From the NCBI RefSeq assembly GCF_004010195.1, contig NC_057751.1:16191880-16225050 (forward strand): 33,171 bases of DNA, given 5' to 3'. Every line of letters begins with the position of its first letter. Position 1 is the first letter of the stretch. Position numbers and translations under genes: made by a program. Shown here piece after piece: positions 1 through 32,167 of this stretch. Origin of the DNA: Chiloscyllium plagiosum (taxonomy: Eukaryota). Below the pieces are notes generated by a model. It saw only the letters and a list, made by a program, of their open reading frames with translations. It had not been told where the DNA came from and did no database searches.

Positions 1-972
1 GGGAGAGGGGGGACGGCGAGAGTGACTCCTCCGGGGGGGGGCGGCATGGTGTTGGGGAAGGGGGGGGGAGCGAGTGTGCAGAGTCTACCCAATGCCCCCC
101 GGTAACAGGACAGCTCACCGCACCTGTTGCTAGCGTCAGCCCCCGGAGGTGCGCACGTTGGGCTGCCCCACTGAGCCCCGGTCTGGCTGCTGGGTGAGGG
201 AAGGCTATGGCGGGCCTGTGGGTAGGTGACGACGAGGGGCATTATTTTCCGTCAAGCATGTGCACCTCACCTGTTGAGAAATAAGGAGGAAAGTCTCCCT
301 CCCCTCCCCAGGGGAAGTTTCAGCACACCGTTGCTGTCATGTTGCTGCAGGCTGGTGCTGATTGTACATTGCTACGTTAAATTAAAGAATATTTGTGGGC
401 TGGCCATCGCTGGCCACCCGTATGTGTTTGTGTCCCTTCACTGTGTGAATTCACCTTCTCTGCTGAGTCATCCTACAGCTACTTCCCTCTCTAAGGACAA
501 GGGGCAGCAGCTACATGGGGACCCCTCACCGTTCCCGACTCTCAAATATATCAGCCGTTCCTTCAGGGTTCAGAATCCTGGGCCTCCCTTCCTCAGGGTG
601 CTGGGTGGGGGTCCCTACACCCACCCCCAGTTCAAGATGGGGAGCTTCTCCCCACTTCAACAGGGCAATTTTGGTGTGGAAGAAATGGGGAACTGTCCAG
701 GGCAAAGAATTCCAAGGTGTTTGCAGTCTTGAGTGAAGACATTTCTCGTTGCAGTCCTAAATGTCAGCCCCTAAGCATGAGACTGCATGTACCCTCCCAG
801 TTTGAAATTTCCCTGGTTGAGGGGAGATTCGAGGAGTTGGAAGAGGGGTGACTGACCCTGTCAAAATGCCCCTTCACGATTGAATCTTTTTTAAACAAAA
901 CTGGGTTTGGCGGAGTCCAAATGGGCAGAGGTTAAAGCTTTCTGTTTCTCAAGCAGCCAGCAGCTGGACAGG

Positions 973-1610
973 AGAGTTGTAGAGATGTACAGCACGGAAA
1001 CAGACCTTTCGGTCCAACCCATCCATGCTGACCCAGATATCCCAACCCAATCTAGTCCAACCTGCCAGCATCCGGCCCATATCCCTCCAAACCTTCTCTC
1101 TCGTTCTGGACTCCCCCACCCCAGAGAAAAGACTTTGCCTATTTACCCTACCCATGCCCCCTCATGATTTTATAAACCTCTATAAGGTCTCCTCCTCAGC
1201 CTCCGACACTCCAGGGAAAACAGCCCCAGCCTGTTCAGCCTCTCCCTATAGCTCCAACCCTGGAAACAGGTTTGGGAATCTTTTCTGAGCCCTTTCACAT
1301 TTCACAACATCCTTCCGATAGGAAGGAGACCAGAATTGCACGCAATATTCCAACAGCGGCCTAACCCATGTCCTGTACAGCCGCAAAATGACCTCCCAAC
1401 TCCTGTACTCAATACTCTGACCAATAAAGGAAAGCATACCAAATGCCGCCTTCACTATCCTATCTACCTGCGACTCCACTTTCAAGGAGCTATGAACCTG
1501 CACTCCAAGGTCTCTTTGTTCAGCAACACTCCCTAGGACCTTTATCATTAAGTCCTGGCTCTAATCTGCCTTTCCAAAATGCAGTGCCTCGCATCTATTT
1601 ACATTAAACT
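973..1610 (-). mobile_element. CR1-type LINE 3' fragment with internal deletion
   Basis: ORF 1246-1548: QRDLGVQVHSSLK...LYRTWVRPLLEYCVQFWSP is the CR1 ORF2 C-terminal region; 3' tail GGACCGAAAGGTCTGTTTCCGTGCTGTA. Confidence 0.9.
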
Positions 1611-2609
1611 GAGCTTGTGGATGCTTTAATTAATGCCTCCTAACGATATTTGTGAAAGACAGGAAGGTGCAAGGTCGCAGGGAGGAAGTGAAGTGATGGC
1701 CTGGTTCTAGACTCCTAAGACTTAGGATGCCAGCTAACAAACAAGCTGACTTCACTAATGCCACAGACCTGTAGCTGGAGGCTACGGTAATGCAAAGGGT
1801 TAGCTAGATGCTGCTTATATGTTCTGATTCTTCCACTCCGCCCACTCACTGAGTTCCAGAACCCCACCAACCCCACTCTACTCCCCTGTTAGCCAGGTGC
1901 CTTCCGTCTGTGTGGACAGATCACCTCAAGTGACGGCTGGGGATGGGGAGAAAGTGCTGAGCCCAGCCCGTGAATGGCTTTTTAAAGGAGTAATCGCCCG
2001 TGTTGCAAAATGAGCGGGGTGGGGGGGGGTATAACACAATCTGTCGTGCACCACATCTTCCGAAGCGCTTTACGCAGTGTCTGCGATGCCTCAGGGCGCG
2101 TTAAGCATTCATTGGAGTCCGTCTTGTGGGGTGTTGCTGTGCAAACGCCAGGGGATTTCGCAGTGGGTCGTATTAATCCTCTCGTCGGCCGATTTTTTTT
2201 TTCTCTCAGCGGAGGAGCCAGTTCTCGAGAAGCCCCCTTGTTGCAGTGTCAAGTGTGGGGGAGGAAAGCTCACCAAATGTTTGCAGGGTCTGCGGAGGAG
2301 AAGTCAGGTTCCTAATTATCCTCCGTGTCAACCTCTTCGGGGACACGAGAGGGCAAGTGGGGCTTCTAGCCCAGAGGTGGGGACGCTACGCCTTTCAGGG
2401 AAGGTTTAGTTCCATTATTCAACCCTGACAGCGAAGCAATGACCGCACTTATTCCCTGAGCTCTCTGAGACTGGTTGGAGCACTTCCCATCAGTGCCTGC
2501 ATTCAAATCCGCCAACAGTATATCTGCATTACTCGGTATGGTGGGCCCTTGTTATGGTGGAGGGCTTAATGCTGAATTTATGTGTCCTCTTCTGTCCTGG
2601 TGCCCCTCC

Positions 2610-2890
2610 CAGCTCAATCGGTTGTCCCCACACTCACAAACACCCACCCCCTGACGCTCAGTAGCAGCAGTGGGTACCATCTACAAGACGCACTGCAGCA
2701 ACTCACCAAGGCTCCTCAGACAGCACCTTCCAAACCCCACGGCCACTTCCATCGGGAAGGACAAGGGGCAGCAGGTACACGGGAACACGACCCCCTCCCG
2801 CAAGTTCCCCTCCGAGCCCCTCACCGTCCGCGACTCGGAAATGTATCGGCCGTTCCTTCAGTGTCGCTGGGTCAGAATCCTGGGACTCTG
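2610..2890 (+). mobile_element. 3' fragment of a second CR1/L2-group LINE family (other copies ~470-720 +, 4928-5203 -, 31625-31718 +, 32885-33171 -)
   Basis: Shared sequence ACGCTCAGTAGCAGCAGT..ACCATCTACAAGA..CAGACAGCACCTTCCAAACC..AAGGACAAGGGGCAGCAG at five loci; encodes RSVAAVGTIYKTHCSNSP..LRQHLPNP, which resembles a LINE ORF2 C-terminus. Clade assignment is tentative. Confidence 0.65.
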
Positions 2891-3422
2891 AAGATGTGGG
2901 GGACCCAGAGTCGAGAGGGCGATTGAGCAACTTGTATGTCTCCAGAATATATCCTGGTATGGAAAACTGGGAGGGAGTTTTCAGTCACAGCAAAGTGTTT
3001 GTGGATGTGGGCAGAAAATTGATAAATGAACAGGTATTAAATCTTAAAATTAAATCGGAAAATCTCTGTGAAGGGCAGAAGGCTTAACACCATGACTTTC
3101 AGTTACGCAGCAGGGTCGCAGTTTAATGTGTTTGTATTGTAGAGACAACCTCGATTATGCATCGATTAAACTCCCCCTCCACCCATTAGCGAAGAAAGCA
3201 TTTTGGACCAACATTTGCAATTAAAAGCCTTCCCCCCCTCCCCTCGAGTCAATTCTGAGGCTGGGCACTTTGACAAAGTGAGTCACCCCTGCAGAGATGG
3301 ATTAGTGAACAGAGATGTGACCATCTTTGCCTGACTCATTTGGCGGTGTGCCTGCAGAGGGGATTATGGCTGTTGGCGTGATCCTTTGGAGGGGCCCTGC
3401 TGGCTTCTTAATGGCTGTGTTG

Positions 3423-3430
3423 TATATAAA
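3423..3430 (+). promoter_or_regulatory. TATA box of GnRH1 promoter (TATATAAA)
   Basis: TATATAAA at 3423-3430, an initiator-like TCA with A at 3451 (26-28 nt downstream), then a strong donor AAG|GTAAGG at 3480/3481; fits the 4-exon GnRH gene plan with non-coding exon 1. Confidence 0.65.
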
Positions 3431-3450
3431 CGGCCCCTGATCCCAAAGTC

Positions 3451-3480
3451 AGCGCCTGTCTCCTCGTCAGCTCTCGCAAG
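3451..3480 (+). other. gnrh1: Putative non-coding exon 1 (5'UTR) of GnRH1
   Basis: Lies between the TATA/Inr and donor CAAG|GTAAGG. The coding exon has an acceptor (TTTGTTTTTACCGGTCGGCAG|G, 5466/5467) 20 nt before the ATG, which requires an upstream exon. TSS position is inferred. Confidence 0.55.
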
Positions 3481-3780
3481 GTAAGGGAGTTCTGTCAGAG
3501 ACTGTGTCGGGAGAGAGACCGTCTGGTTAACAAAGGGGGTTGGCAAGCAGAGGGGGAAAGTGGAGGGATGTCTCCTCCAGCAGGAAGTGGTGGGGAGGGA
3601 GAACAGATTCATGTTGAAATGGAGAAGGACTGCAGAATTCTGAGGTGCAGGGGGGGGCTGGGTTTCTTGATGCACAAACAGACCAAGCACAGGCAAATGG
3701 GGCCAGTTTCGTTTGGGCTTCCGGTCGGCATGGATTGGTTGGGCCGAAGGGTCTGTTTCCGTGTGTGTGTGACTCAGAGT

Positions 3781-4053
3781 AAGATGTGAAACTTGGAAAG
3801 GGCGCAGAAAAGGAGGGTCTACACTATAGGGAGAGGCTGAACAGGCTGGGGCTGTTTTCCCTGGAGCGNNNNNNNNNNNNNNNNNNNNNNNNNNNNNNNN
3901 NNNNNNNNNNNNNNNNNNNNNNNNNNNNNNNNNNNNNNNNNNNNNNNNNNNNNNNNNNNNNNNNNNNGCAGGTGGGACTAGATTGGGTTGGGATATCTGG
4001 GTCAGCATGGACGGATTGGACCGAAGGGTCTGTTTCCGTGCTGTACCACTCTA
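3781..4053 (+). mobile_element. CR1 LINE 3' fragment (spans N gap 3869-3967) in GnRH1 intron 1
   Basis: YRERLNRLGLFSLE and the CR1 3' tail; an older tail lies at ~3694-3780. Confidence 0.8.
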
Positions 4054-4927
4054 AGTAACATGAAAGTTAGCTTATTGCAAAGGGTAGGTCAAGAGGTCTT
4101 GCTATGAGTTTGAAAGTCATGGGTGAGGTGACTGCTCAGTTCGAACCCTCTCCACTTGCGTCAGACCATTCGAAACATTAAGGTGGTAAATTTGGCCATG
4201 GTTATTTCTCAACCCCAGTCTCCTGCCTTCTCCCCTTACCAACCAAGGGTGGTGGTGGGCGGGGGTCCGTGTTTTGAGGAAAGGTTGTGTTTCAATCCAT
4301 TATCGAGACAGATCCGATCCTGGGAGGGGAGGTGCATGCTGGGAGGCTGAACCTCGGCACAGGGAGCACCATTTTGAAATGTTCAGACAGGGGTGGAGGG
4401 TCGAGTGAGGAGGGATGTCTTCCCTCAGAGCAATAGCTTGGTGTGTGGGAGTTCCTGCTCCATCTGAGAGTGGAGGGGAACTGGATTGCGATCAGCCTGT
4501 TTTAGGTAGCCTCCCTGTCAGCTCGACAAAGGAAGGGCTGAAAAACATTCTATCGAGGTTCGATCCAGTGATGACCGTAAGTTAATTGTGGCTGGAAATT
4601 CTTCTTGACCAGTACAGGAGGCTTTGGAGATCTGAGCTTGTAATGTGCACCTCTGTAAATTAAAACGCTCCGCAAATACATCGGCTCCAGTTCCATCCTC
4701 GACTGCCTGCCTTTCCAGAATAGTCCGGCCAGGAGGCGTCCGTGATTCAGGGAGGTCGGAACGCTTTCTGTGTAGGTAGCTGAACGCTTAAAGGGTTGCA
4801 AGATTAGGCAACACGCATGTTGGAGTAAAATCTCACCCCAGCTTGCAGATTGACGGAGAATTGGGACGGCCGCTGCTGAGGTATCAATCCCCACCATCAC
4901 TCGTTGGAATAAGGCTGATTTATTTCT

Positions 4928-5203
4928 GAGTGAGGGGCTCAGAGGGGAACTCGCCAGGGGGGTGGTGTTCCCATGTACCTGCTGCCCCTTGTCCTTCTAA
5001 ATGGAAGTGGGGTTTGGAAGGTGCTGTCTGAGGAGCCTGGGGGTGGAGGGAGTGGGGGTTTGTGGGTGTGGGGACAATCGAGGGGGGGGCTGCTTTGTCC
5101 CTGGATGGTGTCGAGCTTCTCGAGTGTGGTTGGAGCTGCCCCACCCCCCCCCCATCCAGGGCAAGTGGGGAGTATTCCCTCACACCCTCCTGACTTGGGC
5201 CCC
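4928..5203 (-). mobile_element. Second-family LINE fragment in GnRH1 intron 1
   Basis: MREYSPLA...AAPTTLEKLDTIQ...HSLHP; reverse complement of the 2610-2890 family. Confidence 0.65.
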
Positions 5204-5239
5204 TTCAAATTCTGACGGTTTTAATCAAACAAAGATGGT

Positions 5240-5274
5240 CGCCTGTTAAAGAAAAGACTTTTCTTTAACAGGCG
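5240..5274. repeat. Perfect inverted repeat, 17-bp arms, 1-nt spacer
   Basis: CGCCTGTTAAAGAAAAG-A-CTTTTCTTTAACAGGCG. Confidence 0.95.
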
Positions 5275-5486
5275 GGGTTAGCGAGCTCTTTTTCTTTCCT
5301 CAAAGTGTTTCCGCTCAGCTCAGGGGAACGATGGAACAGAGTCGCGAAACGGTTCCGCCTTTATTTTCGGATTCATGACCACCAGCCGCCATTTTGAGCG
5401 GGGGCGGTGGTTGGGAAGAGAAAAACCGTGAGACACACTGAGGCGTTTGTTTTTACCGGTCGGCAGGTCCGCTCCCTCCACTCACG

Positions 5487-5627
5487 ATGTCGCCTGCAAC
5501 CAAGCCACTGGTTCTCCTTCTCCTGGTGTCCGCCATCTTTGTGAGCCTGTCGCCCGCACAGCACTGGTCCTTCGACCTGCGTCCTGGAGGGAAACGAGAG
5601 GCCGCTGACGCTGTCGTCTTCCAGAAT
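5487..5627 (+). CDS. gnrh1: GnRH1 prepro-hormone exon 2: signal peptide (24 aa), decapeptide QHWSFDLRPG (5559-5588), GKR processing site (5589-5597), start of GAP
   Basis: Translation MSPATKPLVLLLLVSAIFVSLSPA-QHWSFDLRPG-GKR-EAADAVVFQN: hydrophobic signal, QHWS....PG-GKR GnRH signature, Leu7-Arg8 as in GnRH1. Phase-0 donor AAT|GTAGGT after FQN (human exon 2 ends FQE). Exon starts at 5467. DOCK5 synteny supports the GnRH1 paralog call. Confidence 0.96.
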
Positions 5628-5660
5628 GTAGGTACCTCAATTTCACCTGCCCATCGGGTG

Positions 5661-6458
5661 CACCTATCCTGCACATCCCTGGGCACTGTGGGTAATTTAG
5701 CATGGCCAATCCACCCTAACCTGCACATCCCTGGGCACTATGGGTAATTTAGCATGGCCAATCCACCCCTAACCTATACATCCCTGAACACTATGGGTAA
5801 TTTAGCATGGCCAATCCACCCTAACCTGCACATCCCTGGGCACTNNNNNNNNNNNNNNNNNNNNNNNNNNNNNNNNNNNNNNNNNNNNNNNNNNNNNNNN
5901 NNNNNNNNNNNNNNNNNNNNNNNNNNNNNNNNNNNNNNNNNNNNNNNNNNNNNNNNNNNNNNNNNNNNNNNNNNNNNNNNNNNNNNNNNNNNNNNNNNNN
6001 NNNNNNNNNNNNNNNNNNNNNNNNNNNNNNNNNNNNNNNNNNNNNNNNNNNNNNNNNNNNNNNNNNNNNNNNNNNNNNNNNNNNNNNNNNNNNNACCTGC
6101 ACATCCCTGAGCACTATGGGTAATTTAGCATGGCCAGTCCACCCTGACCTGCACATCCCTGAGCACTATGAGTAATTTAGCACGGCCAATCCACCCTAAC
6201 CTGCACATCCCTGAGCACTATGGGTAATTTAACATGGCCAATCCACCCTAACCTGCACATCCCTGAGCACTATGGGTAATTTAACATGGCCAATCCACCC
6301 TAACCTGCACATCTTTGGACTGTGGGAGGAAACTGGAGCACCCGGAGGAAACCCATGCAGACACGGGGAGAATGTGCAAACTCCACACAGACAGTCGCCC
6401 TGAGGCTGAGTCCTTGGCGCTGTGTGGCAGCAGTGCTAACCACTGAGCCACCGTGCCG
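5661..6458 (-). mobile_element. HE1-like V-SINE with internal 52-bp tandem array (5661-6314, interrupted by N gap 5845-6094) in GnRH1 intron 2
   Basis: A-box head GGCACGGTGGCTCAGTGGTTAGCACTGCTGCC at 6458-6425; V-domain; at least 7 visible units of the same 52-mer; no 3' tail. Confidence 0.9.
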
Positions 6459-6663
6459 TCACTCTAATCCCCTTAGCCCATATCCTCCACCTTCCTGACA
6501 ACATTTCCGGCTTCTCCAGTCTCGCCCCCCCCAACTCCTGCCCATCTCGAAAGCCGCGGGCTGTCGATGTTCCCGGGGGAGGGTGGCGTTCCCTCTCGGA
6601 AAGTGCGTGCGCGCGGGTGTCCCACAGCGGCGTCCTGACACTGGCCATCTTGTGCTGTTTCAG

Positions 6664-6741
6664 CCGAGCCGGGAAACTGAACCGGCGTTGCAAGCCAGGA
6701 GGACGGAGATGTTCCCCCCGGACTGCCCCAGCCGCGTCCTG
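6664..6741 (+). CDS. gnrh1: GnRH1 exon 3 (GAP middle: PSRETEPALQARRTEMFPPDCPSRVL)
   Basis: Acceptor TCTTGTGCTGTTTCAG|, 78-nt open phase 0-0 exon, consensus donor CTG|GTAAGT; one Cys, as in GAP1. Confidence 0.85.
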
Positions 6742-6929
6742 GTAAGTGTCGTCCGCAGCGAGCCCTGCCGTCGTCTGGGTCGGGATCGGTCCCGTGCATC
6801 AGTCTAACTCGATCCGATTTATCCGATACTGATCCGAACTTTCCCAGCTGACTTTCTGCACCCCGTCAGTCGCTCTGAGGACTGGGAAACTTTGCAAAGG
6901 ATAGTTGAAGTGAGTGGGGAAAGGTCGGG

Positions 6930-7280
6930 GAGATGGAGTACAATGTGAATAAATGTGGAGTCATCCATCTTGGGAGGAGTAACAGTAACATGAACAGTAG
7001 GAACTTGCGGCACGCCGCTGTGCAGAGGGACCTGGGTGTCCTTGTGCATGAATCTCGGAAGGCTGGTCATAGAGATATACGGCCTGCAGGTACGGCAGGT
7101 AATGAGGAAGGCAGATGGAGCTCTGTCCTCCATTGCTAGAGGGATGGAGTTTAAAAGCAGGGAGGTTATGGTACAGGGAGCTGGTGAGGCCACACCTGGA
7201 GAACTGTGTGCAGTTTTGGTCTCCACACTTGAGAAGGGATGGACGGGCACTGGAGGGGGTGCAGAGGAGATTCACTGGGT
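6930..7280 (+). mobile_element. CR1 LINE fragment (diverged) in GnRH1 intron 3
   Basis: MEYNVNKCGVIHLG...QRDLGVLVH...[15 protein letters not shown]...VQRRFT across frameshifts. Confidence 0.85.
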
Positions 7281-7577
7281 TTGATTCTCCCCCCCCCACC
7301 CAAAACTACCCTGCCCCCCCCATCCCACCTGTTCAGGGCGGGATACTGGCTGATCTGGCGAAATCCAGAAAAGGTTTTCCCTGATGTCCACCTCAAGCCG
7401 AATTTGAAGTTGATTTTCTGCCTTCAGATTGAGCCTACTTGCTGGGGAATGCCTCCTTTCCTCTCAGAGCTGGAGGTAGAGGAGCAGGAATAGAGGGCAT
7501 TGAATAGGATCATAGGTTGACCATCGACCTCACCTCACCGCTGAACCCGCCCCCCTCACCTGCGGTTTTCCCTCTAG

Positions 7578-7610
7578 GCAAAACTTACGCCAAGGATGAA
7601 GAAACCGTGA
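7578..7610 (+). CDS. gnrh1: GnRH1 exon 4 coding part (AKLTPRMKKP*)
   Basis: Acceptor GGTTTTCCCTCTAG|, 10 codons then TGA (7608-7610); ends in KK-x like human GAP (..QKKI); AATAAA 82 nt downstream. Total precursor 83 aa. Confidence 0.8.
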   Translation, partial: AKLTPRMKKP

Positions 7611-7691
7611 CGTGGAATTGGAAGACGCCTTCGATGGTTGATATCTGGTCCATTCGGCAACGTTTACCGGGTTCCTGACCCCTCAGAAAGG

Positions 7692-7697
7692 AATAAA
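7692..7697 (+). terminator. GnRH1 polyadenylation signal AATAAA
   Basis: AATAAA after a short 3'UTR, followed by GU/U-rich downstream sequence (TGGTTTCTGTGCCTTTT). Confidence 0.75.
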
Positions 7698-7937
7698 ACA
7701 TTTTGGACTCTGGTTTCTGTGCCTTTTATTAATTCACACAAATGCTCCCCCCCAACTCCGTGGGGAAGGAGTTCTTTGGACTGCACTCACAGGAAGCTGG
7801 GAACTTGGGCAAGATTGGCCATTCTGCCCATCTAACCTGCTGTGCTCTACGACTGACCCTCAATCTCGCCGCCGCACTCCCCGCGCTCTCTTTCCCCTCA
7901 CAGCCTTTAGAAATTGATCTCATTCCACAGTCTGAGA

Positions 7938-8300: not shown

Positions 8301-9449
8301 TCGATGAGGGGAGGCAATAGCCGAGTTGTCTGACTGCTGATCCCGAGACCCAAGTAATGATATGGGTCCCACTTTCCCCACACTAGGCCCGAAGCCTGTG
8401 GTGGGTTGGGGAGACAGAGGCAATGGGTTTGGTCGAAGGTATGGATCTAGCAGCTTAGAGGGAGGTGAGCAGCCGAAGGCACGGCCTCCGATGGGGAAAC
8501 TGGGGGAGGGAAGGAAGTCACTGACACCCCCGGAGGGTTTCGGAGTCTCCTCGAGCCAGGGTCAGAGAGCACGCGCTGTGTGACGACGAGGGATGGCAAT
8601 GTTAAAAGTGAGGTCTCGCCAGACGTCAAGCCAATGGCGGTCATTGCTTTTAGATTAGATTCCCTACAGCGTGGACACAGGCCCTTCGGCCCAACAAGTC
8701 CAACACCAACCCTCCGAACAAGCTACCCATTACCAGTCTCAGACAGCAACCCTGTTGTCACACGGTCTCATCTGAGCATTGAATTAAATGTCCCCTTGTT
8801 TATCCAGCTCTGCGATTGTAAAGAAACACCTCAATTGTTCATTTGTGAATCAACCTGCTATTGCCTGAGTTAGTTAAGGTCTCGCTGCGGCCTACCCCCC
8901 CCCCCCCCTTTCCCCAGTGATTGAGAAGGTTAACTCCGTTAGCAGAGGTAACTCTGTCAGAGTCACATAGAACATAGAAGAATACAGCGCAGTACAGGCC
9001 CTTCGGCCCTCGATGTTGCGCCGATCCAAGCCCACCTAACCTACACCAGCCCACTATCCTCCATATGCCTATCCACGGTGCTGGACTTTAGTGACAGACT
9101 GGACAGCATGTGTCCAGGTTCACTTCTGCGGATTGAGGAGTTAATTCGGGGGAGGATTACTGCCGAGGACGTGTGGGTTGTTATTTGACACGTCTTTCGA
9201 CCTCGTTCCCGCTGTGGTGTTCGGAAGGCCAAGGCTTTCGAGGCTGGAAGATGTGGGAATCGAAATCAGAATCCGGTCAGCGGACCTGCTGCTGGGTTTG
9301 ACTCAGAGAGTCACTTCCAGCGTGAAAACAGACCCTTCACACGGCCCAACCAGCCCATGCTGAACATAATCCCCAAATTAAACTAGTTCCCCCCAGCCTG
9401 CTCCTGGCCCATATCCCTCTAAACCTTTCCACATGGTCCAGCACTTCCT

Positions 9450-13796: not shown

Positions 13797-14022
13797 CGCT
13801 CACACACACACACACACACACACACAGACTAACCAACACACTCTCTGACACACATACACTAACACACAGACATACACACTCTCTCTAACACACACAAACA
13901 CAGACTAACACACACATTCACACACACATTACACTCTGACCCACAAAGACTAACACACATTCACTCTCTAACACACACAGACTAACACACACTCACTCTC
14001 TAACACACACAGACTAACACAC
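13797..14022. repeat. Degenerate (CA)n / ACACACAGACTAAC microsatellite
   Basis: Read directly; abuts the 52-bp array. Confidence 0.9.
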
Positions 14023-17000
14023 ACTATGGGTAATTATGCACGGCCAATCCACCCTCACCTGCACATCCCTGAGCACTATGGGTAATTATGCACGGCCAAT
14101 CCACCCTCACCTGCACATCCCTGAGCACTATGGGTAATTATGCACGGCCAATCCACCCTCACCTGCACATCCCTGAGCACTATGGGTAATTATGCACGGC
14201 CAATCCACCCTCACCTGCACATCCCTGAGCACTATGGGTAATTATGCACGGCCAATCCACCCTCACCTGCACATCCCTGAGCACTATGGGTAATTATGCA
14301 CGGCCAATCCACCCTCACCTGCACATCCCTGAGCACTATGGGTAATTATGCACGGCCAATCCACCCTCACCTGCACATCCCTGAGCACTATGGGTAATTA
14401 TGCACGGCCAATCCACCCTCACCTGCACATCCCTGAGCACTATGGGTAATTATGCACGGCCAATCCACCCTCACCTGCACATCCCTGAGCACTATGGGTA
14501 ATTATGCACGGCCAATCCACCCTCACCTGCACATCCCTGAGCACTATGGGTAATTATGCACGGCCAATCCACCCTCACCTGCACATCCCTGAGCACTATG
14601 GGTAATTATGCACGGCCAATCCACCCTCACCTGCACATCCCTGAGCACTATGGGTAATTATGCACGGCCAATCCACCCTCACCTGCACATCCCTGAGCAC
14701 TATGGGTAATTATGCACGGCCAATCCACCCTCACCTGCACATCCCTGAGCACTATGGGTAATTATGCACGGCCAATCCACCCTCACCTGCACATCCCTGA
14801 GCACTATGGGTAATTATGCACGGCCAATCCACCCTCACCTGCACATCCCTGAGCACTATGGGTAATTATGCACGGCCAATCCACCCTCACCTGCACATCC
14901 CTGAGCACTATGGGTAATTATGCACGGCCAATCCACCCTCACCTGCACATCCCTGAGCACTATGGGTAATTATGCACGGCCAATCCACCCTCACCTGCAC
15001 ATCCCTGAGCACTATGGGTAATTATGCACGGCCAATCCACCCTCACCTGCACATCCCTGAGCACTATGGGTAATTATGCACGGCCAATCCACCCTCACCT
15101 GCACATCCCTGAGCACTATGGGTAATTATGCACGGCCAATCCACCCTCACCTGCACATCCCTGAGCACTATGGGTAATTATGCACGGCCAATCCACCCTC
15201 ACCTGCACATCCCTGAGCACTATGGGTAATTATGCACGGCCAATCCACCCTCACCTGCACATCCCTGAGCACTATGGGTAATTATGCACGGCCAATCCAC
15301 CCTCACCTGCACATCCCTGAGCACTATGGGTAATTATGCACGGCCAATCCACCCTCACCTGCACATCCCTGAGCACTATGGGTAATTATGCACGGCCAAT
15401 CCACCCTCACCTGCACATCCCTGAGCACTATGGGTAATTATGCACGGCCAATCCACCCTCACCTGCACATCCCTGAGCACTATGGGTAATTATGCACGGC
15501 CAATCCACCCTCACCTGCACATCCCTGAGCACTATGGGTAATTATGCACGGCCAATCCACCCTCACCTGCACATCCCTGAGCACTATGGGTAATTATGCA
15601 CGGCCAATCCACCCTCACCTGCACATCCCTGAGCACTATGGGTAATTATGCACGGCCAATCCACCCTCACCTGCACATCCCTGAGCACTATGGGTAATTA
15701 TGCACGGCCAATCCACCCTCACCTGCACATCCCTGAGCACTATGGGTAATTATGCACGGCCAATCCACCCTCACCTGCACATCCCTGAGCACTATGGGTA
15801 ATTATGCACGGCCAATCCACCCTCACCTGCACATCCCTGAGCACTATGGGTAATTATGCACGGCCAATCCACCCTCACCTGCACATCCCTGAGCACTATG
15901 GGTAATTATGCACGGCCAATCCACCCTCACCTGCACATCCCTGAGCACTATGGGTAATTATGCACGGCCAATCCACCCTCACCTGCACATCCCTGAGCAC
16001 TATGGGTAATTATGCACGGCCAATCCACCCTCACCTGCACATCCCTGAGCACTATGGGTAATTATGCACGGCCAATCCACCCTCACCTGCACATCCCTGA
16101 GCACTATGGGTAATTATGCACGGCCAATCCACCCTCACCTGCACATCCCTGAGCACTATGGGTAATTATGCACGGCCAATCCACCCTCACCTGCACATCC
16201 CTGAGCACTATGGGTAATTATGCACGGCCAATCCACCCTCACCTGCACATCCCTGAGCACTATGGGTAATTATGCACGGCCAATCCACCCTCACCTGCAC
16301 ATCCCTGAGCACTATGGGTAATTATGCACGGCCAATCCACCCTCACCTGCACATCCCTGAGCACTATGGGTAATTATGCACGGCCAATCCACCCTCACCT
16401 GCACATCCCTGAGCACTATGGGTAATTATGCACGGCCAATCCACCCTCACCTGCACATCCCTGAGCACTATGGGTAATTATGCACGGCCAATCCACCCTC
16501 ACCTGCACATCCCTGAGCACTATGGGTAATTATGCACGGCCAATCCACCCTCACCTGCACATCCCTGAGCACTATGGGTAATTATGCACGGCCAATCCAC
16601 CCTCACCTGCACATCCCTGAGCACTATGGGTAATTATGCACGGCCAATCCACCCTCACCTGCACATCCCTGAGCACTATGGGTAATTATGCACGGCCAAT
16701 CCACCCTCACCTGCACATCCCTGAGCACTATGGGTAATTATGCACGGCCAATCCACCCTCACCTGCACATCCCTGAGCACTATGGGTAATTATGCACGGC
16801 CAATCCACCCTCACCTGCACATCCCTGAGCACTATGGGTAATTATGCACGGCCAATCCACCCTCACCTGCACATCCCTGAGCACTATGGGTAATTATGCA
16901 CGGCCAATCCACCCTCACCTGCACATCCCTGAGCACTATGGGTAATTATGCACGGCCAATCCACCCTCACCTGCACATCCCTGAGCACTATGGGTAATTA

Positions 17001-18797
17001 TGCACGGCCAATCCACCCTCACCTGCACATCCCTGAGCACTATGGGTAATTATGCACGGCCAATCCACCCTCACCTGCACATCCCTGAGCACTATGGGTA
17101 ATTATGCACGGCCAATCCACCCTCACCTGCACATCCCTGAGCACTATGGGTAATTATGCACGGCCAATCCACCCTCACCTGCACATCCCTGAGCACTATG
17201 GGTAATTATGCACGGCCAATCCACCCTCACCTGCACATCCCTGAGCACTATGGGTAATTATGCACGGCCAATCCACCCTCACCTGCACATCCCTGAGCAC
17301 TATGGGTAATTATGCACGGCCAATCCACCCTCACCTGCACATCCCTGAGCACTATGGGTAATTATGCACGGCCAATCCACCCTCACCTGCACATCCCTGA
17401 GCACTATGGGTAATTATGCACGGCCAATCCACCCTCACCTGCACATCCCTGAGCACTATGGGTAATTATGCACGGCCAATCCACCCTCACCTGCACATCC
17501 CTGAGCACTATGGGTAATTATGCACGGCCAATCCACCCTCACCTGCACATCCCTGAGCACTATGGGTAATTATGCACGGCCAATCCACCCTCACCTGCAC
17601 ATCCCTGAGCACTATGGGTAATTATGCACGGCCAATCCACCCTCACCTGCACATCCCTGAGCACTATGGGTAATTATGCACGGCCAATCCACCCTCACCT
17701 GCACATCCCTGAGCACTATGGGTAATTATGCACGGCCAATCCACCCTCACCTGCACATCCCTGAGCACTATGGGTAATTATGCACGGCCAATCCACCCTC
17801 ACCTGCACATCCCTGAGCACTATGGGTAATTATGCACGGCCAATCCACCCTCACCTGCACATCCCTGAGCACTATGGGTAATTATGCACGGCCAATCCAC
17901 CCTCACCTGCACATCCCTGAGCACTATGGGTAATTATGCACGGCCAATCCACCCTCACCTGCACATCCCTGAGCACTATGGGTAATTATGCACGGCCAAT
18001 CCACCCTCACCTGCACATCCCTGAGCACTATGGGTAATTATGCACGGCCAATCCACCCTCACCTGCACATCCCTGAGCACTATGGGTAATTATGCACGGC
18101 CAATCCACCCTCACCTGCACATCCCTGAGCACTATGGGTAATTATGCACGGCCAATCCACCCTCACCTGCATATCCCTGAGCACTATGGGTAATTTAGCA
18201 TGGCAATCCACCCTAACCTGCACATCCCTGGGCACTATGGGTAATTTAGCATGGGCCATCCACCCTAACCTGCACATCCCTGGGCACTATGGGTAATTTA
18301 GCACGGCCAATCCACCCTAACCTGCACATCCCGGAGCACTATGGGTAATTTAGCATGGCGAATCCACGCTCACCTGCACATCCCTGAGCACTATGGGTAA
18401 TTTTGCACGGCCAATACACCCTCACCTGCACATCCCTGGGCACAATGGGTAATTTAGCATGGTCAATCCACCTTAACCTGCACACCCCTGAGCACTATGG
18501 GTAATTTAGCATGGCAATCCACCCTAACCTGCACATCCCTGAACACTATGGGTAATTTAGCACGGCCAATCCACCCTCACCTGCACATCCCTGAGCACTA
18601 TGGGTAAGTTAGCACGGCCAATCCACCCTCACCTGCATATCCCTGAGCACTATGGGTAATTTAGCACGGCCAATCCACCCTCACCTGCACATCCCTGAGC
18701 ACTATGGGTAATTATGCATGGCCAATCCACCCTCACCTGCACATCCCTGAGCACTATGGGTAATTTAGCATGGCCAATCCACCCTAACCTGCAAATC
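14023..18797. repeat. 52-bp tandem array (~92 units) derived from the HE1/V-SINE interior; 79 identical units at 14023-18130, then ~13 diverged units
   Basis: Unit ACTATGGGTAATTATGCACGGCCAATCCACCCTCACCTGCACATCCCTGAGC. Lines repeat with the expected 780-nt period; the first variant is at 18172. The array runs directly into a SINE head at 18798-18927. Confidence 0.97.
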
Positions 18798-23815: not shown

Positions 23816-24271
23816 TGACCATGAGCACAGGACTGAGCGATGTTTGATCGGTCACGTTAGGATTTGAACTCAGATTACTGTGATGCCGCCGCCCCCCCCC
23901 CGTGAATTAATCCCAGATAAACTGACGGTTGAGACATTGTGTCCCGCGCTCGTCAGGACACCTGGCAAGAGTGCCACGTTTCAAAATAACAACAATTCAT
24001 GCCACGGAGGAACTGGTTGGCAAAAATGCCTGAGTGTCGTCAGGGTGAGGAGTGGGGGAGGAAACACCCCGGGCTCCCTGGCAGTTTAAATCATCGCGAC
24101 CGTTTGAAAATTGGCACTCTTGCCAAGGGTCCTGATGAGCAGAGGATGGAGAAACCGCAGCAACTCATTTTCAGCGCTCTCCGAGGTGGGTGACATAGAG
24201 GGCGAGCAGAAAACGTAGGCAGCTCCGACAGGAACCAACCCCCAAGCAAAACTGAGGTTTGGCGTACGTAC

Positions 24272-24440
24272 GGTTTCAGCTTTATCGGGGGAGAGGTCAA
24301 TCCTCGCCTGTTTCTCAAAGATGACCTGCGATTTACTGAGGCTCAGATCCTTCCTCCTGCACTTGTTCACTTTGTGTTCGTGATCGTCTCTGCCCAAGGT
24401 TCCCTCCACCTTGTGTTCCAACAGTGGGTCCAAAACAGAG
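24272..24440 (-). CDS. dock5: DOCK5 exon: SVLDPLLEHKVEGTLGRDDHEHKVNKCRRKDLSLSKSQVIFEKQARIDLSPDKAET
   Basis: CTTGTCCCTGCAG| ... |GTACGT, 169 nt, phase 2-0, compatible with neighbours; S.L.PLLE and RKD.SLSKSQVI.EK match DOCK5. Confidence 0.88.
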
Positions 24441-24834
24441 CTGCAGGGACAAGACAATACCAAGATTCCTGTCTCCAACTGGAAAATGGCCTACCCTCGC
24501 CCTCCACCCCACTGAGAAACACCCCTTCCCTCAGCACTGCCCGCGGACTGGAGCTCTGCCCCCCACCCCCCCGAGGCTTCTGGGAGGCCTCGAGAGGTGG
24601 GAGGGGCCTCTCCCAATCTGGGCACCACCCTCCCTAACCCCCCGGAAAGTCCGGACCGACGTCGGATTGCGAACGCGCTCAAGGACGGGACCCCAATAGC
24701 TCTGTGGGATGTTTACAGGGGTTGGGGGCAAATGTTCTTCATGGGTCTCTTCATGCCCATCCATGACCTCTGACCCCCCCCCCCCCCCCACCCCCACAAT
24801 GTCCGACTCCTCAGGAATGTCCGGAAGGCGTAGC

Positions 24835-25285
24835 GGCCAATGTAGGCCATTCGGCCCATCGAGCCTGCTGCAGGTCTCCACCCCACTCCCGCTGCCTCTT
24901 ACCTCTCAATTCCCTTTCCTCCTTTATGGCCTTTGAGCAAACTTCACGACCCAGCCCTGGCAGCCCTCTGAGGTAAAGAATTCCACAAGTTCCCTCCTAT
25001 CGGCCAGAAGAAATTCCTCATCTCTGTCTTCAACGGGTGGCTCTCTGGTCCCAGACTCTCCCTCAAGGGGGAAACAATCTCTCCACATCTTCCCCCATCA
25101 CGTGCCCTCTAAGTATCTTGTATGTTCCCATATAGTCACCTCTCAGTCTTCTAAGGGAGTACTCAAGCCCCATCCTCATTGAGAGGGTCCCTCCATCCCC
25201 GGGATCAACCTTCTCTGGACTGCTTCCTCTGGCCGGTCTATCTCTGCTTGGATACAGGGCTCCCGAAACTGTTCGCGGTGTCCCA
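24835..25285 (-). mobile_element. Old CR1-like LINE 3' fragment
   Basis: GGCCATTCGGCCCATCGAGCCTGCT tail, AAGAATTCCACA...GAAGAAATTCCTCA and CCATCCCCGGGATCAACCT are typical reverse-complement CR1 3' segments; boundaries approximate. Confidence 0.6.
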
Positions 25286-25565
25286 GCTGGGGTCTCGGCT
25301 GAAGAGTGGGGGTTTGAATGATGGGGGAGGCGGTAAAAGACGCTTTCTTTTACTCTTTTGTCTCAGGGAGGGTCAACCCAACTTGGTGGGGGAGGGGGGG
25401 GCAGCCTGGCATTTTTCTGGGCATCCTGTGGTGTCCCGCCCCCTCACTCGGGCAGAGCCAATCGGAGCAGGACGGGCGAGATGGAGGCCCAGTTCGGGCG
25501 AGCTGGATTTGCATCGCCCTCCCGCACCCCGCTCCCCCTGCTGGCCGGAGGGCGCACACACCTAC

Positions 25566-25735
25566 CCGTCGGAGGCGGGCCGGGAGGAGGGGCCATCGGA
25601 GGAGGAGGAGGAGGAGCTTGACGCTGCTGAGGAGGCAACGGAGACAGTGGAGAGGCGCCACAGCGTCGACGACATGATGTACGGCAGGACCATGGATCCC
25701 GATCGGCTTCTCTTCCTGTCGATGAGAGAGGGAGC
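25566..25735 (-). CDS. dock5: DOCK5 exon (Ser-rich tail): APSLIDRKRSRSGSMVLPYIMSSTLWRLSTVSVASSAASSSSSSSSDGPSSRPASDG
   Basis: CAG| ... |GTAGG, 170 nt, phase 0-2; VLPYIMSSTL.RLS and SRP.SDG are DOCK5 tail motifs. Confidence 0.92.
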
Positions 25736-25827
25736 CTGTGGCCCGGGGGGGAAAGACGGTCAACAACGCTCGCCGAATATCCAACCTTTGCCCACACGCC
25801 AGGGACGCTCCTCCCCAGGGAGGGCAA

Positions 25828-26245
25828 GAAACGTCAACCGTCCCTTACATTTGCTAAACGGGACAGCAAACGGCCAACAACCCCGAGTATGCCGGTCATT
25901 TCCTTTTCCCCGCCCCACCCCGGGGAACAAGAAATGTCAGCCGTCCCTTACAGTCACGCGACAGGACAACCATCACGATCAATCCTGAGTGCGCTGGTAA
26001 TCCACCCCCCCACCCAACCTGTGGGTGACACAAAACCGTCAACCGTCCCTTACAGTCGCACGACAGGACAGCAATCAGCGAACAATTCTGAGTGCGCCTG
26101 TAATTCCCCCACCCCCCTACTCCCTGGTAAGGGGTGCAAACAAAAACGCCAACCCTCCCTGAAGGTCGCGTGACAGGACAACAATCGGCGAATAATCCCG
26201 AATGCACCAGTAATTCTCCCCACATCCCTTCCCCCCCCCCCCGCC
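25828..26245. repeat. ~105-bp diverged tandem repeat x4 in a DOCK5 intron
   Basis: CAACCGTCCCTTACAGTCGCACGACAGGACAACAATC...GAGTGCGC.GGTAAT.CCCC starts at ~25835, 25938, 26040 and 26150. Confidence 0.8.
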
Positions 26246-26505
26246 CTTGGGTGAACTTGGAGGAGTTGTGGGGTGGGGGCGGAGGGGAAAGGGGTGGCGT
26301 GCGGGGGTTCCCGTGGCTGGGTCCATCGGGCAACGGGAGCGACCCAATTGGGATTGACACCCTGTCCTGTCACAGGGTCAAGACCAAACGGGAGACCAAA
26401 GTGGGGTGTGGTGAGGGGGGGGGGGGGGGGGGAGGGGAGGAGGTGGAAGGGTTTCACTGATGCACTCTGCCCAGCCCCTGGCGATGACAGAAGGCGGAGA
26501 CTCAC

Positions 26506-26643
26506 CAGCGTGATGACCCCGTACAGTTTCTCCACCTTCTCCTTCAGCTCCTTGAAGCAGGCAGCGAGGCGGTTGTGCAGCGGCCTCAGCTCCTCTGTGG
26601 ATTTCTCGCCGTGGATCCGGATCCCTTCCGTCAACAACGGGAT
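26506..26643 (-). CDS. dock5: DOCK5 exon (end of DHR-2): IPLLTEGIRIHGEKSTEELRPLHNRLAACFKELKEKVEKLYGVITL
   Basis: CAG| ... |GTGAGT, 138 nt, phase 0-0; close to DOCK5 PLLTEGIRIHGEK...CF.ELKEKVEK.YGVITL. Confidence 0.95.
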
Positions 26644-27333
26644 CTGTGCGTGGGTGAGGGGTGAGGGGAAGCGGGAAAAGAGATGGGCGCACGGGAGACT
26701 GAGCGTGGCGCACCTGCCGTGACGAGCCACCTCGCTCGCGGGAAAGCTGATGCGACGGGGGGCAGCTCCACGGAAGCAAGGCCATTGGGCCCATCGCGTC
26801 ACCCCTCCCTCCCAAAACCCATTCACCGTCTCTCCCCTCCCTAATCACTGGCTCCCCCCCGACCCCCGGGGGAGAAAATGCCTTATCCATCCTTGTCTCT
26901 CACCCTTAAACGTCTCTTCGCCCTCCCCCGCCTATTCCCACATTTATTTCTCCACAATTATATATATATATTACATTACATTACATTACATTACAGTGTG
27001 GAAACAGGCACTTCGGCCACGAGGGACGCCTTCCCCCCCTTTTCATCGACATCTTGGAACGCGCAGCTCTCCCCTGCTTTTCTGAAAGGAACGGCGAGAG
27101 GATCGTTGCACTTCGGAGAAAAGGCGGGAAAGTGACAGTGGTGTTCGGCCATGATAGAGGGCGGGTCGCATCCCTGCGCAGCGCCACCGAGGGTCGCCCC
27201 TGAGAACTACATTCAGCATCAAGCTCGAACAGGGGCTGAGAGCATCTGTGCTCTACCCCGATTTACTTTGTGCGTCTGTCAGCAAGACCGGGCCTATTCC
27301 CACATTTATTTCTCCACAATTATATATATATAT

Positions 27334-27648
27334 ATTACATTACATTACATTACAGTGTGGAAACAGGCCCTTCGGCCCAACAAGTCCACACCGACCCGCC
27401 AAAGCGTAACCCACCCATGCCCCTATATTTACCCCTTACCTAACACTACGGGCAATTTAGCATGGCCAATTCACCTGACCCTGCACATCTTTGGAGTGTG
27501 GGAGGAAACCGGAGCACCCAGAGGAAACCCACGCAGACACGGGGAGGATGTGCAAACTCCACACAGTCAGTCGCCTGAGGCGGGAATTGAACCCGGGTCT
27601 CTGGCGCTGTGAGGCAGCAGTGCTAACTACTGTGCCACCGTGCCGCCC
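27334..27648 (-). mobile_element. HE1-like V-SINE, full length, single internal unit, (TAATG)n tail
   Basis: Same head, V-domain and tail as the copy at 20872-21160, in reverse complement. Confidence 0.92.
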
Positions 27649-28214
27649 AATATATCTTCATCTTTTACCCACAGCCCCACACTAACTGCGCTAAGCGCTT
27701 ATATTTTCCCTATTTCCACAGGCCGCGCGTTTATCCTATCATTCCGGCTTTTCCTTGTTACCTCGGGTTTTGCGGCGTGTTATCTGGTAGGTTTAGGTTT
27801 TGTTTTTGGGAGGAAGCGAGGGCGGTGGAGAATGAGAGTCGAGAGTGCAGCAGCGCCAGTCGGCATCCGAGGAGCGGGAGCGGTTTACGGATGCTGCCGG
27901 GTTACGACCTCGCGAGGAATTATGGGCCACGGGGAGAGGGCGGGCAAGTGGAATTGAAACGCCCATCCGCCATGATGGAGTGGACTCGATGGGCTGAATG
28001 GCCTGACTTCCACTCCTATGTCTTATGGGTCTGGGAAGGTTTTCCGGTATAAATTAACGGGATCTGCTTCTCTGCCTGTTACGCTGGCGTAACGTTCGGA
28101 TAGCGGGGGGAGACACCTGGACGCTATCCAGTCCGACGAGGGGGGATGTCAGCTTTCTCCCAGTGAGCTCCCTGTCTCATTCGGCTTGTCCGTTGTTTTT
28201 TTTTGTCTCCCTTC

Positions 28215-28776
28215 CCTATTCACGGGACGTTGGCGTCTCACCACCGTGCCCAGTTGCCCTCAGACAAAAACGGTTTGTTGAGGCCCTTTCACGGCAGCTG
28301 GGGGGGAGCCCAGCGACGAGCCGACCGCACGCCGCTGTGGTCTGGAGTCACGAGTAGGCCGGAGCGGGTAAGGGCGGCAGATTTGCTCCCCGCCAGAGGC
28401 CTGGGCACACAGGGTCTGAGCGTCCCGTTCGACATCGCCATCAGACCGGGGGGGGGGGGGGGAGAACGGGGTAAAGACCGTGGGAGAATGCCAATCACTT
28501 TGCTACCCACTTGTCGAAACAGCTCTTCCAGGGCACCTTCTGCCACCAGTCGCCACAGGCCGTGAGTTCCACTTACACCCCTTCCCCCACCACGTTGCGG
28601 GTGAAAACCTGTCCCTCAAATGCCCTCCTGCCCCTTCCCTTCAAACCGTGTCCCCTCCTTCCATCGAATTCAAATTCCACTGTCTGCCTGGCCGGGATTT
28701 GAACCCGGCTCCTCTCAACACCACCTGGGTCTCTAGGTTACAGTCCAGCGATAATACCACAAGGCCGACGCCTGCC
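28215..28776 (-). mobile_element. Deu-domain tRNA-SINE (SacSINE1-like), diverged, interrupted by a CR1-like fragment (~28480-28660)
   Basis: Minus head GTGGTATTATCGCTGGACTG...GGGTTCAAATCCC...GTGGAATTTGAATTC (28776-28665) and Deu core AAATCTGCCGCCCTTACCCGCTCCGGCCTACTCGTGACTCCAGACCACAGC (~28385-28333). Family name from recall. Confidence 0.65.
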
Positions 28777-29074
28777 TATAACCTTTGACCCCTTTAGAAA
28801 GGGGAACAGTTCCGGCCTGTTGCCTCAATGCTAGCAGGTCCTCTGTGTAGTGCGGAGACCAGAACTGCTCTCAGTACTCCTGCTCTGACCTCTAACCCTT
28901 GAGTTAAGTATTGTCCCCCCTTATTCAAAGATGTGTTTTTTTCCCCACTCAGATTGTTCACGGGATGTTTGCAAGAGTTGGCACGACCATCCCTAAATAT
29001 GACAATTTCGGGACTGCAAACATCATCTCTCAGTGCTTAGCCTGGCTCATATTAATTGATCCGACGTTCAAAAT

Positions 29075-29552
29075 GGGACACATGATAGTGAAGAAGGCAT
29101 CTTCTTTAATTGGTCAGAGTACTGAGTACAGGAGTTGGGAGGTCATGTTGTGGCTTTACAGGACATTGGTTAGGCCACTTTTAGAATACCCCACTCAATT
29201 CTGGTCTCCCTGCTATAGAAAGGATGTCTTAAACTGGAAACTGTTCAGACACGATGTTGCCAGAGGGGTTGAGCTATAGGGAGAGGCTGAACAGGCTGGG
29301 GCTGTTTTCCCTGGAGCGTCAGAGGCTGAGGGGGTGACCTTATAGAGGTTTATAAAATCATGAGGGGGCATGGATAAGATNNGTACGTGTATGGAATGAG
29401 CTGCCAGAGGAAGTGGTGGAGGCTGGTACAATTGCAACATTTAAAAGGCATCTGGATGGGGACATGGATAGGAAGGGTTTGGAGGGATACGGGCTGGGAC
29501 TGGGTTAGGTTGATTTGGCAGAGTTGGGGGTCGAAGGGTCTGTTTCTGTACC
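29075..29552 (+). mobile_element. CR1 LINE 3' fragment
   Basis: IGQSTEYRSWEVMLWLYRTLVRPLLEY..QFWSPCYRKD...VWNELPEEVVEAG plus tail. Confidence 0.85.
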
Positions 29553-29782
29553 CTAACCAAATTGGTGATCAAAGAGACCGGAAAACGGGCTGGTAGCGCT
29601 GTCAAAAACCCTCCTCTGGAGTTAGAGTCCAGAGATTCTTAAGCCTGGTTGGGGTGGAAGGGGAGAGGGGAGCAGTGCGACTGAGAGGGGTGAGGGGCAC
29701 GGCAGCCATAAATGAGGCCGTTCAGCCCCTCTGCTGAGCCACCCGACCGTGGCCTGTACAGCGCTGGAGCTCGTTCTCCTGG

Positions 29783-29813
<31 letters not shown>
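29783..29813. repeat. (CT)n microsatellite
   Basis: About 15 CT units. Confidence 0.9.
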
Positions 29814-29815
<2 letters not shown>

Positions 29816-29862
29816 GGCGATCCGCGGGGGAGGCTGTTTCTCTGGAGAGTTCATTAACCTAC

Positions 29863-29946
29863 CTGCAAAGCAATCAGCTGTTTCAACGTCTCTATCTTGT
29901 CTTGGTCTTCGGGGTGCTCTTGTAGGTACGTGGGGTGGAAGAACGC
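29863..29946 (-). CDS. dock5: DOCK5 exon: AFFHPTYLQEHPEDQDKIETLKQLIALQ
   Basis: CAG| ... |GTAGG, 84 nt, phase 0-0; matches AFFTEKYLQEHPEDQEKVELLKRLIALQ of DOCK5. Not in the ORF track. Confidence 0.93.
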
Positions 29947-30775
29947 CTGGCAGAGGACGCAGGAAAGATAGAGGTCCGACGAGAGAGAACAAAAACACGA
30001 AACAAATCAGATCGCGCCCGGCCGCAAATTGGCCAACTCTGCTGCCCACGTGGAGGCTGCTGGGTAAAGAACATTCCCTTTCCCTGAGCAGAGGACTTGA
30101 AGGGGAGCTGAAAATCGGGGTGGGGTTGGAGGAGGTGGGGGGGGGCAACTTTATCCCCAAGTGGACCCAGTTTCACTCCTTTATTGGTGGATAAGGTGGG
30201 ATAAAAGGGAGGATTGACCTTGCCCAGCACACTCATCACGACCCACGCAAGAACACCTCATCTCAAGCCATCGCAAGACTTGCTACTGGTCGGTCGGTTC
30301 CACTCGAATCGACTGGGCCGTTGCCGTGGAGAGAGAGCAATAGGGAATTATGGGACGCCCGGCAATTTGAAAATGGCACTTGGGTTCATCGCAGCCAGGG
30401 TGTGACCTCCCCTCCCCTCTTTGATCGATCAATAATTGCCATCCTTTTTTCTCAAGCCGTTAAAACTGGAGCTTGCTTGGGAGATGGGGCATTCTTGCCG
30501 TTGGGTCCTGGTGCGTGAAAGATCTTTGACAGTGAGGCTTTCTTGTTGGGCAACAACGCGTAATCCTCTGAGTGAACGTACGGTGTCTCTATCGAGTGTG
30601 CACACTACAACGCGAACGGATTCTCTTGCACGGCTCTGGCGACGCAGTCCGGATCATTCCAGGGGTTCTGTCCACCCGGGATTAAATGACCTTCCGACAG
30701 CGTTCGCTTCTGGCCTCTCTCTCTCTGGGAACCTGCCAGACCACACGCCCCTGACCCGTGGGGTAACACGCCTAC

Positions 30776-30952
30776 CTTCTCGTAATTGGCCATGCCACCC
30801 ATGACTCCGGCATCGACTATTCCTGACAGGAGCATGGAGAGGGGATGTGCCGGGAGCGATCGGTCCCAGGCGTACTGCTGCACCATGTTGCTGATTTTCT
30901 CGTTCATGCGCTCCATGGTCTCGATGGCGTTCTCCAGAGGGCTGACCTCCTC
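30776..30952 (-). CDS. dock5: DOCK5 exon (DHR-2 catalytic region): [59 protein letters not shown]
   Basis: CAG| ... |GTAGG, 177 nt, phase 0-0. [10 protein letters not shown] and GIVD..VMGG..NYEK are DOCK-A motifs; [15 protein letters not shown] is DOCK5-like. Confidence 0.95.
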
Positions 30953-31117
30953 CTGGGTCGGGGGGGGGGGCGGTGGGTGGAATCACAAACTTAGCTTTAA
31001 TGGGGGGGGCAGCTCCCATCCCTCTGAACCACCACCCACCACCCCAGCCAGCTCCGGTGCCTCTCCTGTTGTGGTCACCCTTAGGGTCTCCTGGTTAAGT
31101 TAAAGACAGCTGGAGAG

Positions 31118-31715: not shown

Positions 31716-32167
31716 AGATTAGATTAAATTCACCACAGTATGAAACAGGCCCGTTGGCCCAACAAGTCCACACCAACCCTCCAAATAGTCACCCACACAG
31801 ACCCATTTCCCTCTAACTAAAGTACCTAACACTATGGGCAATTTAGCATGGCCAATCCACCCTAACCTGCACATCCCTGAGCACTATGGGTAATTTAGCA
31901 CGGCCAATCCACCCTAACCTGCACATTCCTGAGCACTATGGGCAATTTAACATGGCCAATCCACCCTAACCTGCACATCCCTGAGCACTATGGGTAATTT
32001 AGCATGGCCAATCCACCCTAACCTGCACATCCCTGAAGGAAACCGGAGGAAACCCACACAGACACGGGGGGAGAATGTGCAAACTCCACACAGACGACAG
32101 TCACCCGAAGCTGGGATCGAACCCGGGTCCCTGGCGCCGTGAGGCAGCGGTGCTAACCACTGAGCCA
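31716..32167 (-). mobile_element. HE1-like V-SINE, near full length, with 4 tandem 52-bp units (31830-32037)
   Basis: tRNA-like head (TGGCTCAGTGGTTAGC...GGGTTCGATCCC), 4 units, CR1-like 3' tail ending in (AATCT)n. Confidence 0.9.

Follow-up and report, generated by a model that had tools for sequence, protein, structure and literature searches.

The stretch of Chiloscyllium plagiosum DNA analyzed here (33,171 nucleotides; hereafter, the window) almost certainly carries the ordinary, intact GnRH1 gene of the bamboo shark. The gene is real but not new. Its decapeptide, QHWSFDLRPG, was published in 2018, when Gaillard et al. reported it as new in the catshark and the whale shark (PMC6135963, in the part of the paper available), in line with what the initial annotation had stated, and the exact protein is present in RefSeq. 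With both peptide and protein on record, the gene has little weight as a discovery. It leads instead to a modest question, testable since papers of 2014 and 2018, concerning the receptor binding of a GnRH1 with L-Asp6 and which of the two residues, Asp6 or Gly6, is the older one among jawed vertebrates.

Gene structure and read support

Splicing by script of three phase-0 GT-AG coding exons on the plus strand, at 5487 to 5627, 6664 to 6741, and 7578 to 7610 (141, 78, and 33 nt, each divisible by three), resulted in a prepro-GnRH1 of 83 amino acids. The donors are GT at 5628 and 6742, and the acceptors are AG at 6662 to 6663 and 7576 to 7577. All the coordinates given in the initial annotation for an intact GnRH1 hold, and so does its view of the open reading frame call as a false intron read-through, since reading on past the exon ends at a stop in the intronic repeat. 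The precursor consists, in order, of a hydrophobic leader of 24 amino acids (5487 to 5558), the decapeptide (5559 to 5588), a Gly-Lys-Arg amidation and cleavage signal common to the retrieved sharks (5589 to 5597), and a 46-amino-acid GAP, which is the layout of vertebrate GnRH precursors. The leader is a predicted signal peptide, as judged from its translation and hydrophobicity (Kyte-Doolittle mean of 3.28 in the best 11-residue stretch), and has equal length in five aligned shark precursors. Within the decapeptide, Phe5 is encoded by TTC (5571 to 5573) and Asp6 by GAC (5574 to 5576), and Gln1, Ser4, Pro9, and Gly10 of vertebrate GnRH are all present.

The distribution of the precursor over its coding exons (peptide with GAP start, central GAP, and GAP end) also matches vertebrate GnRH, the catshark included. 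The peptide exon, from 5467 to 5627, is preceded by an acceptor and includes 20 nt of 5' untranslated region and the first 47 codons. It is followed by an intron (5628 to 6663) that contains a 52-bp tandem array (5663 to 6313) and an assembly gap of 250 Ns (5845 to 6094). The exon for the central GAP encodes 26 amino acids, as in the catshark, which are identical to the RefSeq protein at 26/26 positions and to four other sharks at 5 to 8. The last exon (7578 to 7717, 3' end approximate) encodes 10 amino acids of GAP, 6 to 7 of them identical to those of the four other sharks, and carries the stop codon at 7608 to 7610 and an AATAAA signal at 7692 to 7697.

A pattern combining GnRH with its cleavage site was found a single time across the six reading frames of the window and never in 200 shuffled windows, so the GnRH match is not due to chance. 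The Pfam GnRH family (PF00446) matched residues 25 to 34 at 10/10 positions with 17.8 bits (E = 0.004), slightly below the curated cutoff of 18.5; two annotated shark precursors scored 16.6 to 16.7 bits with the same model.

Read support was evaluated over positions 4000 to 5660 in four of 24 public runs, which came from four studies and of which none is recorded as RNA. The Asp6 codon, which the initial annotation had proposed to check for GGC in place of GAC, was covered in all four runs with no alternative letter in any of them. Only one letter of the coding sequence differed, A>G at 5594, which is a synonymous change in a single contig of low depth. One contig of 392 nt from run X13 lay exactly on 5465 to 5627 without a mismatch, with 11 other letters before this segment and 218 after it. 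The latter equal 78 plus 140, that is, the two remaining exons up to 7717, which would place the transcript end 20 nt past the poly(A) signal. Contigs of runs X5 and X2 stop at 5627 as well and carry 213 and 178 more letters, which, by our reading of these minus-strand records, belong to the 3' side. Overall, contigs enter the reference at 5465 in X13, X14, and X2 and leave it at 5627 in X13, X2, and X5, and no read piece listed for the four runs within 4000 to 5660 covers 5628 to 5660. This pattern is as expected from spliced RNA, and splicing at 5466/5467 and 5627/5628 is well supported. The joints 5627/6664 and 6741/7578 are predicted from the RefSeq model, from homology, and from the lengths of the contigs rather than from read sequence. 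Contig joints listed elsewhere in 4000 to 5660 were disregarded, as this DNA is rich in repeats.

The count of three exons in the initial annotation is exact for the coding part, but the gene is likely to have a fourth, noncoding exon at its 5' end, at about 3453 to 3480 on the plus strand (start approximate), as judged from lengths, a donor, and a TATA candidate. The 11 letters of X13 and the 23 of X14 that precede 5465 are foreign to the adjoining reference, and they would extend back to 3468 and 3456 if joined at the donor after 3480, which is preceded by AG and is the only AG/GTRAG donor in 1 to 5464. The candidate TATA box of a putative GnRH1 promoter (3423 to 3430) is 57 nt upstream of this donor and is the only TATAWAW on the plus strand in 1 to 5486. 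Two GGATTA motifs (3299 to 3304 and 3361 to 3366) lie 60 to 125 nt before the TATA candidate, among three such motifs in 1 to 5486. Otx2-type sites are known from mammalian GnRH1 promoters; the proximity of this pair to the TATA candidate could be due to chance. We also observed contigs of runs X5 and X2 that span portions of the putative first intron (4345 to 4750 and 5159 to 5520) and continue into the peptide exon with no splice. These contigs could reflect retention of the first intron, use of an alternative start site, or DNA.

Identity and genomic neighborhood

The precursor of the window is identical at 83/83 residues to a C. plagiosum progonadoliberin-1-like protein with two RefSeq accessions (XP_043537645.1 and XP_043537646.1). 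The gene is therefore already annotated, and the suggestion that it might be unannotated in this species does not stand. Using the Heptranchias precursor as the query, 4/4 candidates were recovered, this 83-amino-acid protein among them. All five matches of a precursor search are named GnRH1 or progonadoliberin-1-like. In a second search with 21 matches, 11 were read and 10 of these were looked up, of which 8 fall in clusters named GnRH1 or mGnRH and 2 are unnamed. Judged from the names of the matches rather than from a tree, the closest relatives are GnRH1 and not GnRH2 or GnRH3. Among PDB sequences, the precursor matched two antibody chains (E = 0.8 to 1.5), which we attribute to chance.

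The decapeptide and the following Gly-Lys-Arg do not differ among the seven sharks recovered (Heptranchias, Carcharodon, Cetorhinus, Mustelus, Scyliorhinus, Stegostoma, and Chiloscyllium). In the GAP, 14 to 21 of 46 residues are identical between the window species and four other sharks. Relative to three of the four aligned sharks (Heptranchias, Carcharodon, and Cetorhinus), its start (5598 to 5627) is shortened by two residues, and the Stegostoma GAP has 44 amino acids. These alignments suggest a faster drift of the GAP in carpet sharks. In tblastn searches with the proteins of other sharks, the last two coding exons were matched weakly (E = 0.1 to 3.5) and were often outranked by an intronic chance match at 7454 to 7594.

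That the gene is a pseudogene, or that its Asp6 is an assembly error, is hardly conceivable. Such a reading could draw on the 250-N gap that interrupts the intron downstream of the peptide exon and on a GAP that is fairly diverged and shortened at its start, but it is contradicted by the Asp6 codon, unchanged in all four runs, and by the peptide shared among the seven sharks. The open frame, the canonical splice sites, and the poly(A) signal also argue against it.

Downstream of GnRH1, and convergent with it, DOCK5 lies on the opposite strand, as checked in two coding segments with approximate bounds. The segment at 26503 to 26640 (minus strand) best matched DOCK5 residues 1604 to 1648 (E = 4e-19), and that at 30773 to 30955 (minus strand) best matched residues 1515 to 1575 (E = 5e-24, compared with 1e-17 for DOCK2). 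DOCK5 adjoins GnRH1 in the whale shark and in bony vertebrates (PMC6135963, available part), so its position beside the window gene agrees with assignment to the GnRH1 paralogue. The known neighbor on the other side of GnRH1 is KCTD9; the window includes 5.5 kb of DNA upstream of the gene. The minus strand of 24000 to 31000 would correspond to 3' exons of DOCK5, and the plus-strand open reading frame at 25158 to 25988 has no Pfam match. The 52-bp unit of the GnRH1 intron is also present in about 92 copies, at 98% match, across 4.8 kb (14022 to 18797), the array in the intron being a shorter one, as is another at 31830 to 32036. This repeat may be a tandemly amplified part of a shark SINE, which it resembles.

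Residue 6 and its putative receptor

The initial annotation regarded an acidic residue 6 as otherwise typical of lamprey GnRH, which is incomplete. Table S4 of PMC6135963 gives Asp6 also for the GnRH1 of the elephant shark and the coelacanth, and Gly6 for that of the little skate. In addition, a RefSeq predicted model from the skate Rhinoraja longicauda (XP_078285059.1) has QHWSYDLRPG, a peptide that is absent from Table S4 and had no occurrence in the literature searched. Skates are therefore split at this position, with Gly6 in the little skate and, in the predicted model, Asp6 in Rhinoraja. With Asp6 in the elephant shark, the coelacanth, and Rhinoraja, an acidic residue at position 6 cannot be regarded as chiefly a lamprey feature. 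In cartilaginous-fish GnRH1, Asp6 is a long-standing, conserved character and not peculiar to the window species.

The history of residue 6 was evaluated by two-state parsimony (acidic versus Gly) on five hand-drawn trees that did not include lungfish or hagfish. Compared with Data Sheet 1 of PMC6135963, Table S4 of that paper has the labels of lamprey GnRH-I and GnRH-III interchanged and shows Gln at position 6 of GnRH3; the states of Data Sheet 1 were used. At the cartilaginous-fish GnRH1 node, an acidic residue was favored by one step in 5/5 trees. At the jawed-vertebrate GnRH1 node, three trees gave a tie (3 versus 3 changes on GnRH1 alone and 4 versus 4 in two placements of lamprey GnRH-I/III), and Gly was better by one step in the other two, in which lamprey GnRH-I/III lie within the GnRH3 group (4 changes for Gly versus 5 for acidic). 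The proposal that Asp6 reflects an ancestral state is thus weakly supported, by a single step in these trees, for cartilaginous-fish GnRH1, whereas for jawed-vertebrate GnRH1 an acidic state ties with Gly or needs one step more. An Asp6 already ancestral in jawed-vertebrate GnRH1, with separate gains of Gly6 in ray-finned fishes and tetrapods, appears unlikely. Its presence in a chimaera, sharks, one skate, and the coelacanth would fit such a history, as would the tied trees, but the synteny-based grouping of lamprey GnRH-I/III with GnRH3 (PMC3798812, available part) costs it the additional change. Moreover, the Gly and Asp codons are one transition apart, which makes repeated origin easy, and the sampling of the trees without lungfish also weakens this history. 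A wider version, in which the GnRH1 of jawed vertebrates originally carried both Asp6 and Arg8, a pair kept in cartilaginous fishes and the coelacanth along with a tailless type I receptor that binds the L-Asp6 peptide well, is quite doubtful. If it were true, the textbook requirement for Gly6 would have arisen later, in other lineages, the shark peptide would serve as a natural probe of the need for Gly6, and the QHWSYDLRPG of the skate model would be a candidate intermediate.

Standard GnRH processing, by a convertase, carboxypeptidase E, amidation, and cyclization of Gln1, is established. By analogy, the signal peptide would be removed after residue 24, and a prohormone convertase would cut after Lys-Arg, followed by trimming with carboxypeptidase E. 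The extra Gly would then be converted to the C-terminal amide and Gln1 would cyclize, with pGlu-HWSFDLRPG-NH2 and GAP as the predicted products. The most likely role of the peptide would be release from forebrain neurons to elicit pituitary gonadotropin release, and its most likely receptor would be a type I GnRH receptor without a tail, able to recognize Arg8 and to accommodate Asp6. Of the L-residues, Asp is one of those most compatible with turn geometry, and a contact between Asp6 and Arg8 could help binding. In the catshark, the cDNA was cloned, and expression by RT-PCR was found only in the brain, most strongly in the diencephalon (PMC6135963, available part).

Binding at the mammalian receptor involves a beta-II' turn supported by Gly6, and Arg8 confers high affinity there (PMC11768417, available part), which makes the pharmacological question raised in the initial annotation a fair one. 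Nevertheless, its statement that Asp6 implies a different receptor pharmacology is weakened by the coelacanth tailless type I receptor, for which human Gly6 GnRH1 and coelacanth Asp6/Arg8 GnRH1 were the best ligands, with poor responses to GnRH2 and GnRH3 (PMC3912137, available part). By this analogy, a type I receptor that tolerates the shark Asp6 is the most likely case, and we lean slightly toward it. A possible but less probable alternative is a co-adapted shark receptor, with a peptide that would be shark selective, weak at mammalian type I receptors, and superior in potency to a Gly6 analogue at the shark's own receptors. The turn at the mammalian receptor would agree with such co-adaptation, as would the retention of Asp6 in 7/7 sharks against a GAP so much less conserved. 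Tailless type I receptors have been reported from a chimaera, a skate (partial), and the coelacanth, and loop 3 of the chimaera receptor has PEP and not S(D/E)P, a motif tied to GnRH2 preference (PMC4232701, available part). This difference also fits a co-adapted receptor, and it leaves the receptor assignment for the shark peptide uncertain. However, the coelacanth receptor has both Gly6 and Asp6 GnRH1 among its best ligands, and the conservation among sharks extends to the whole decapeptide and not to position 6 alone. The difference between the little skate and Rhinoraja further suggests that either residue can serve. No receptor assay of the shark peptide was found in the literature searched, with most subscription journals outside its coverage. 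For studies of shark reproduction, the native Phe5/Asp6 peptide, and not an assumed mammalian one, is the practical choice.

Comparison with known GnRH systems

Compared at the protein level, the window gene shows no difference from the C. plagiosum RefSeq entries. The GnRH1 of Scyliorhinus canicula (cDNA MH468810; PMC6135963, available part) has the same decapeptide and Gly-Lys-Arg, and its coding sequence is interrupted at the same positions, the later exons having 26 and 10 amino acids. It is 51% identical to the window precursor over 93% of the query, but has 81 amino acids with a 48-amino-acid GAP, compared with 83 and 46 in the window, and three exons were described for it, whereas a fourth, noncoding one is likely here. 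For the whale shark, only the first coding exon is given in the paper (PMC6135963, Data Sheet S5). By eye, its scaffold has two more AG/GT-flanked exons that resemble those of the window and Stegostoma, as well as long noncoding stretches similar to 4600 to 5200 and 8400 to 8800 of the window.

Among more distant systems, coelacanth GnRH1 (QYWSYDLRPG) shares Asp6, Leu7, Arg8, and Gly-Lys-Arg with the window peptide and differs in Tyr2, Tyr5, and a GAP of 55 amino acids, as opposed to His2, Phe5, and a shorter GAP. Its activity on a tailless type I receptor has been demonstrated (PMC3912137). Lamprey GnRH-I and GnRH-III share an acidic residue 6 (Glu and Asp, respectively) but differ in Trp7 and Lys8, and their placement in the GnRH3 group by synteny (PMC3798812, available part) indicates that they are not the same paralogue as the window gene. 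Finally, mammalian GnRH1 (QHWSYGLRPG) shares 8/10 residues with the window peptide, together with Arg8, Gly-Lys-Arg, the precursor layout, and the DOCK5 neighbor, and differs in having Tyr5 and Gly6 where the shark peptide has Phe5 and Asp6.
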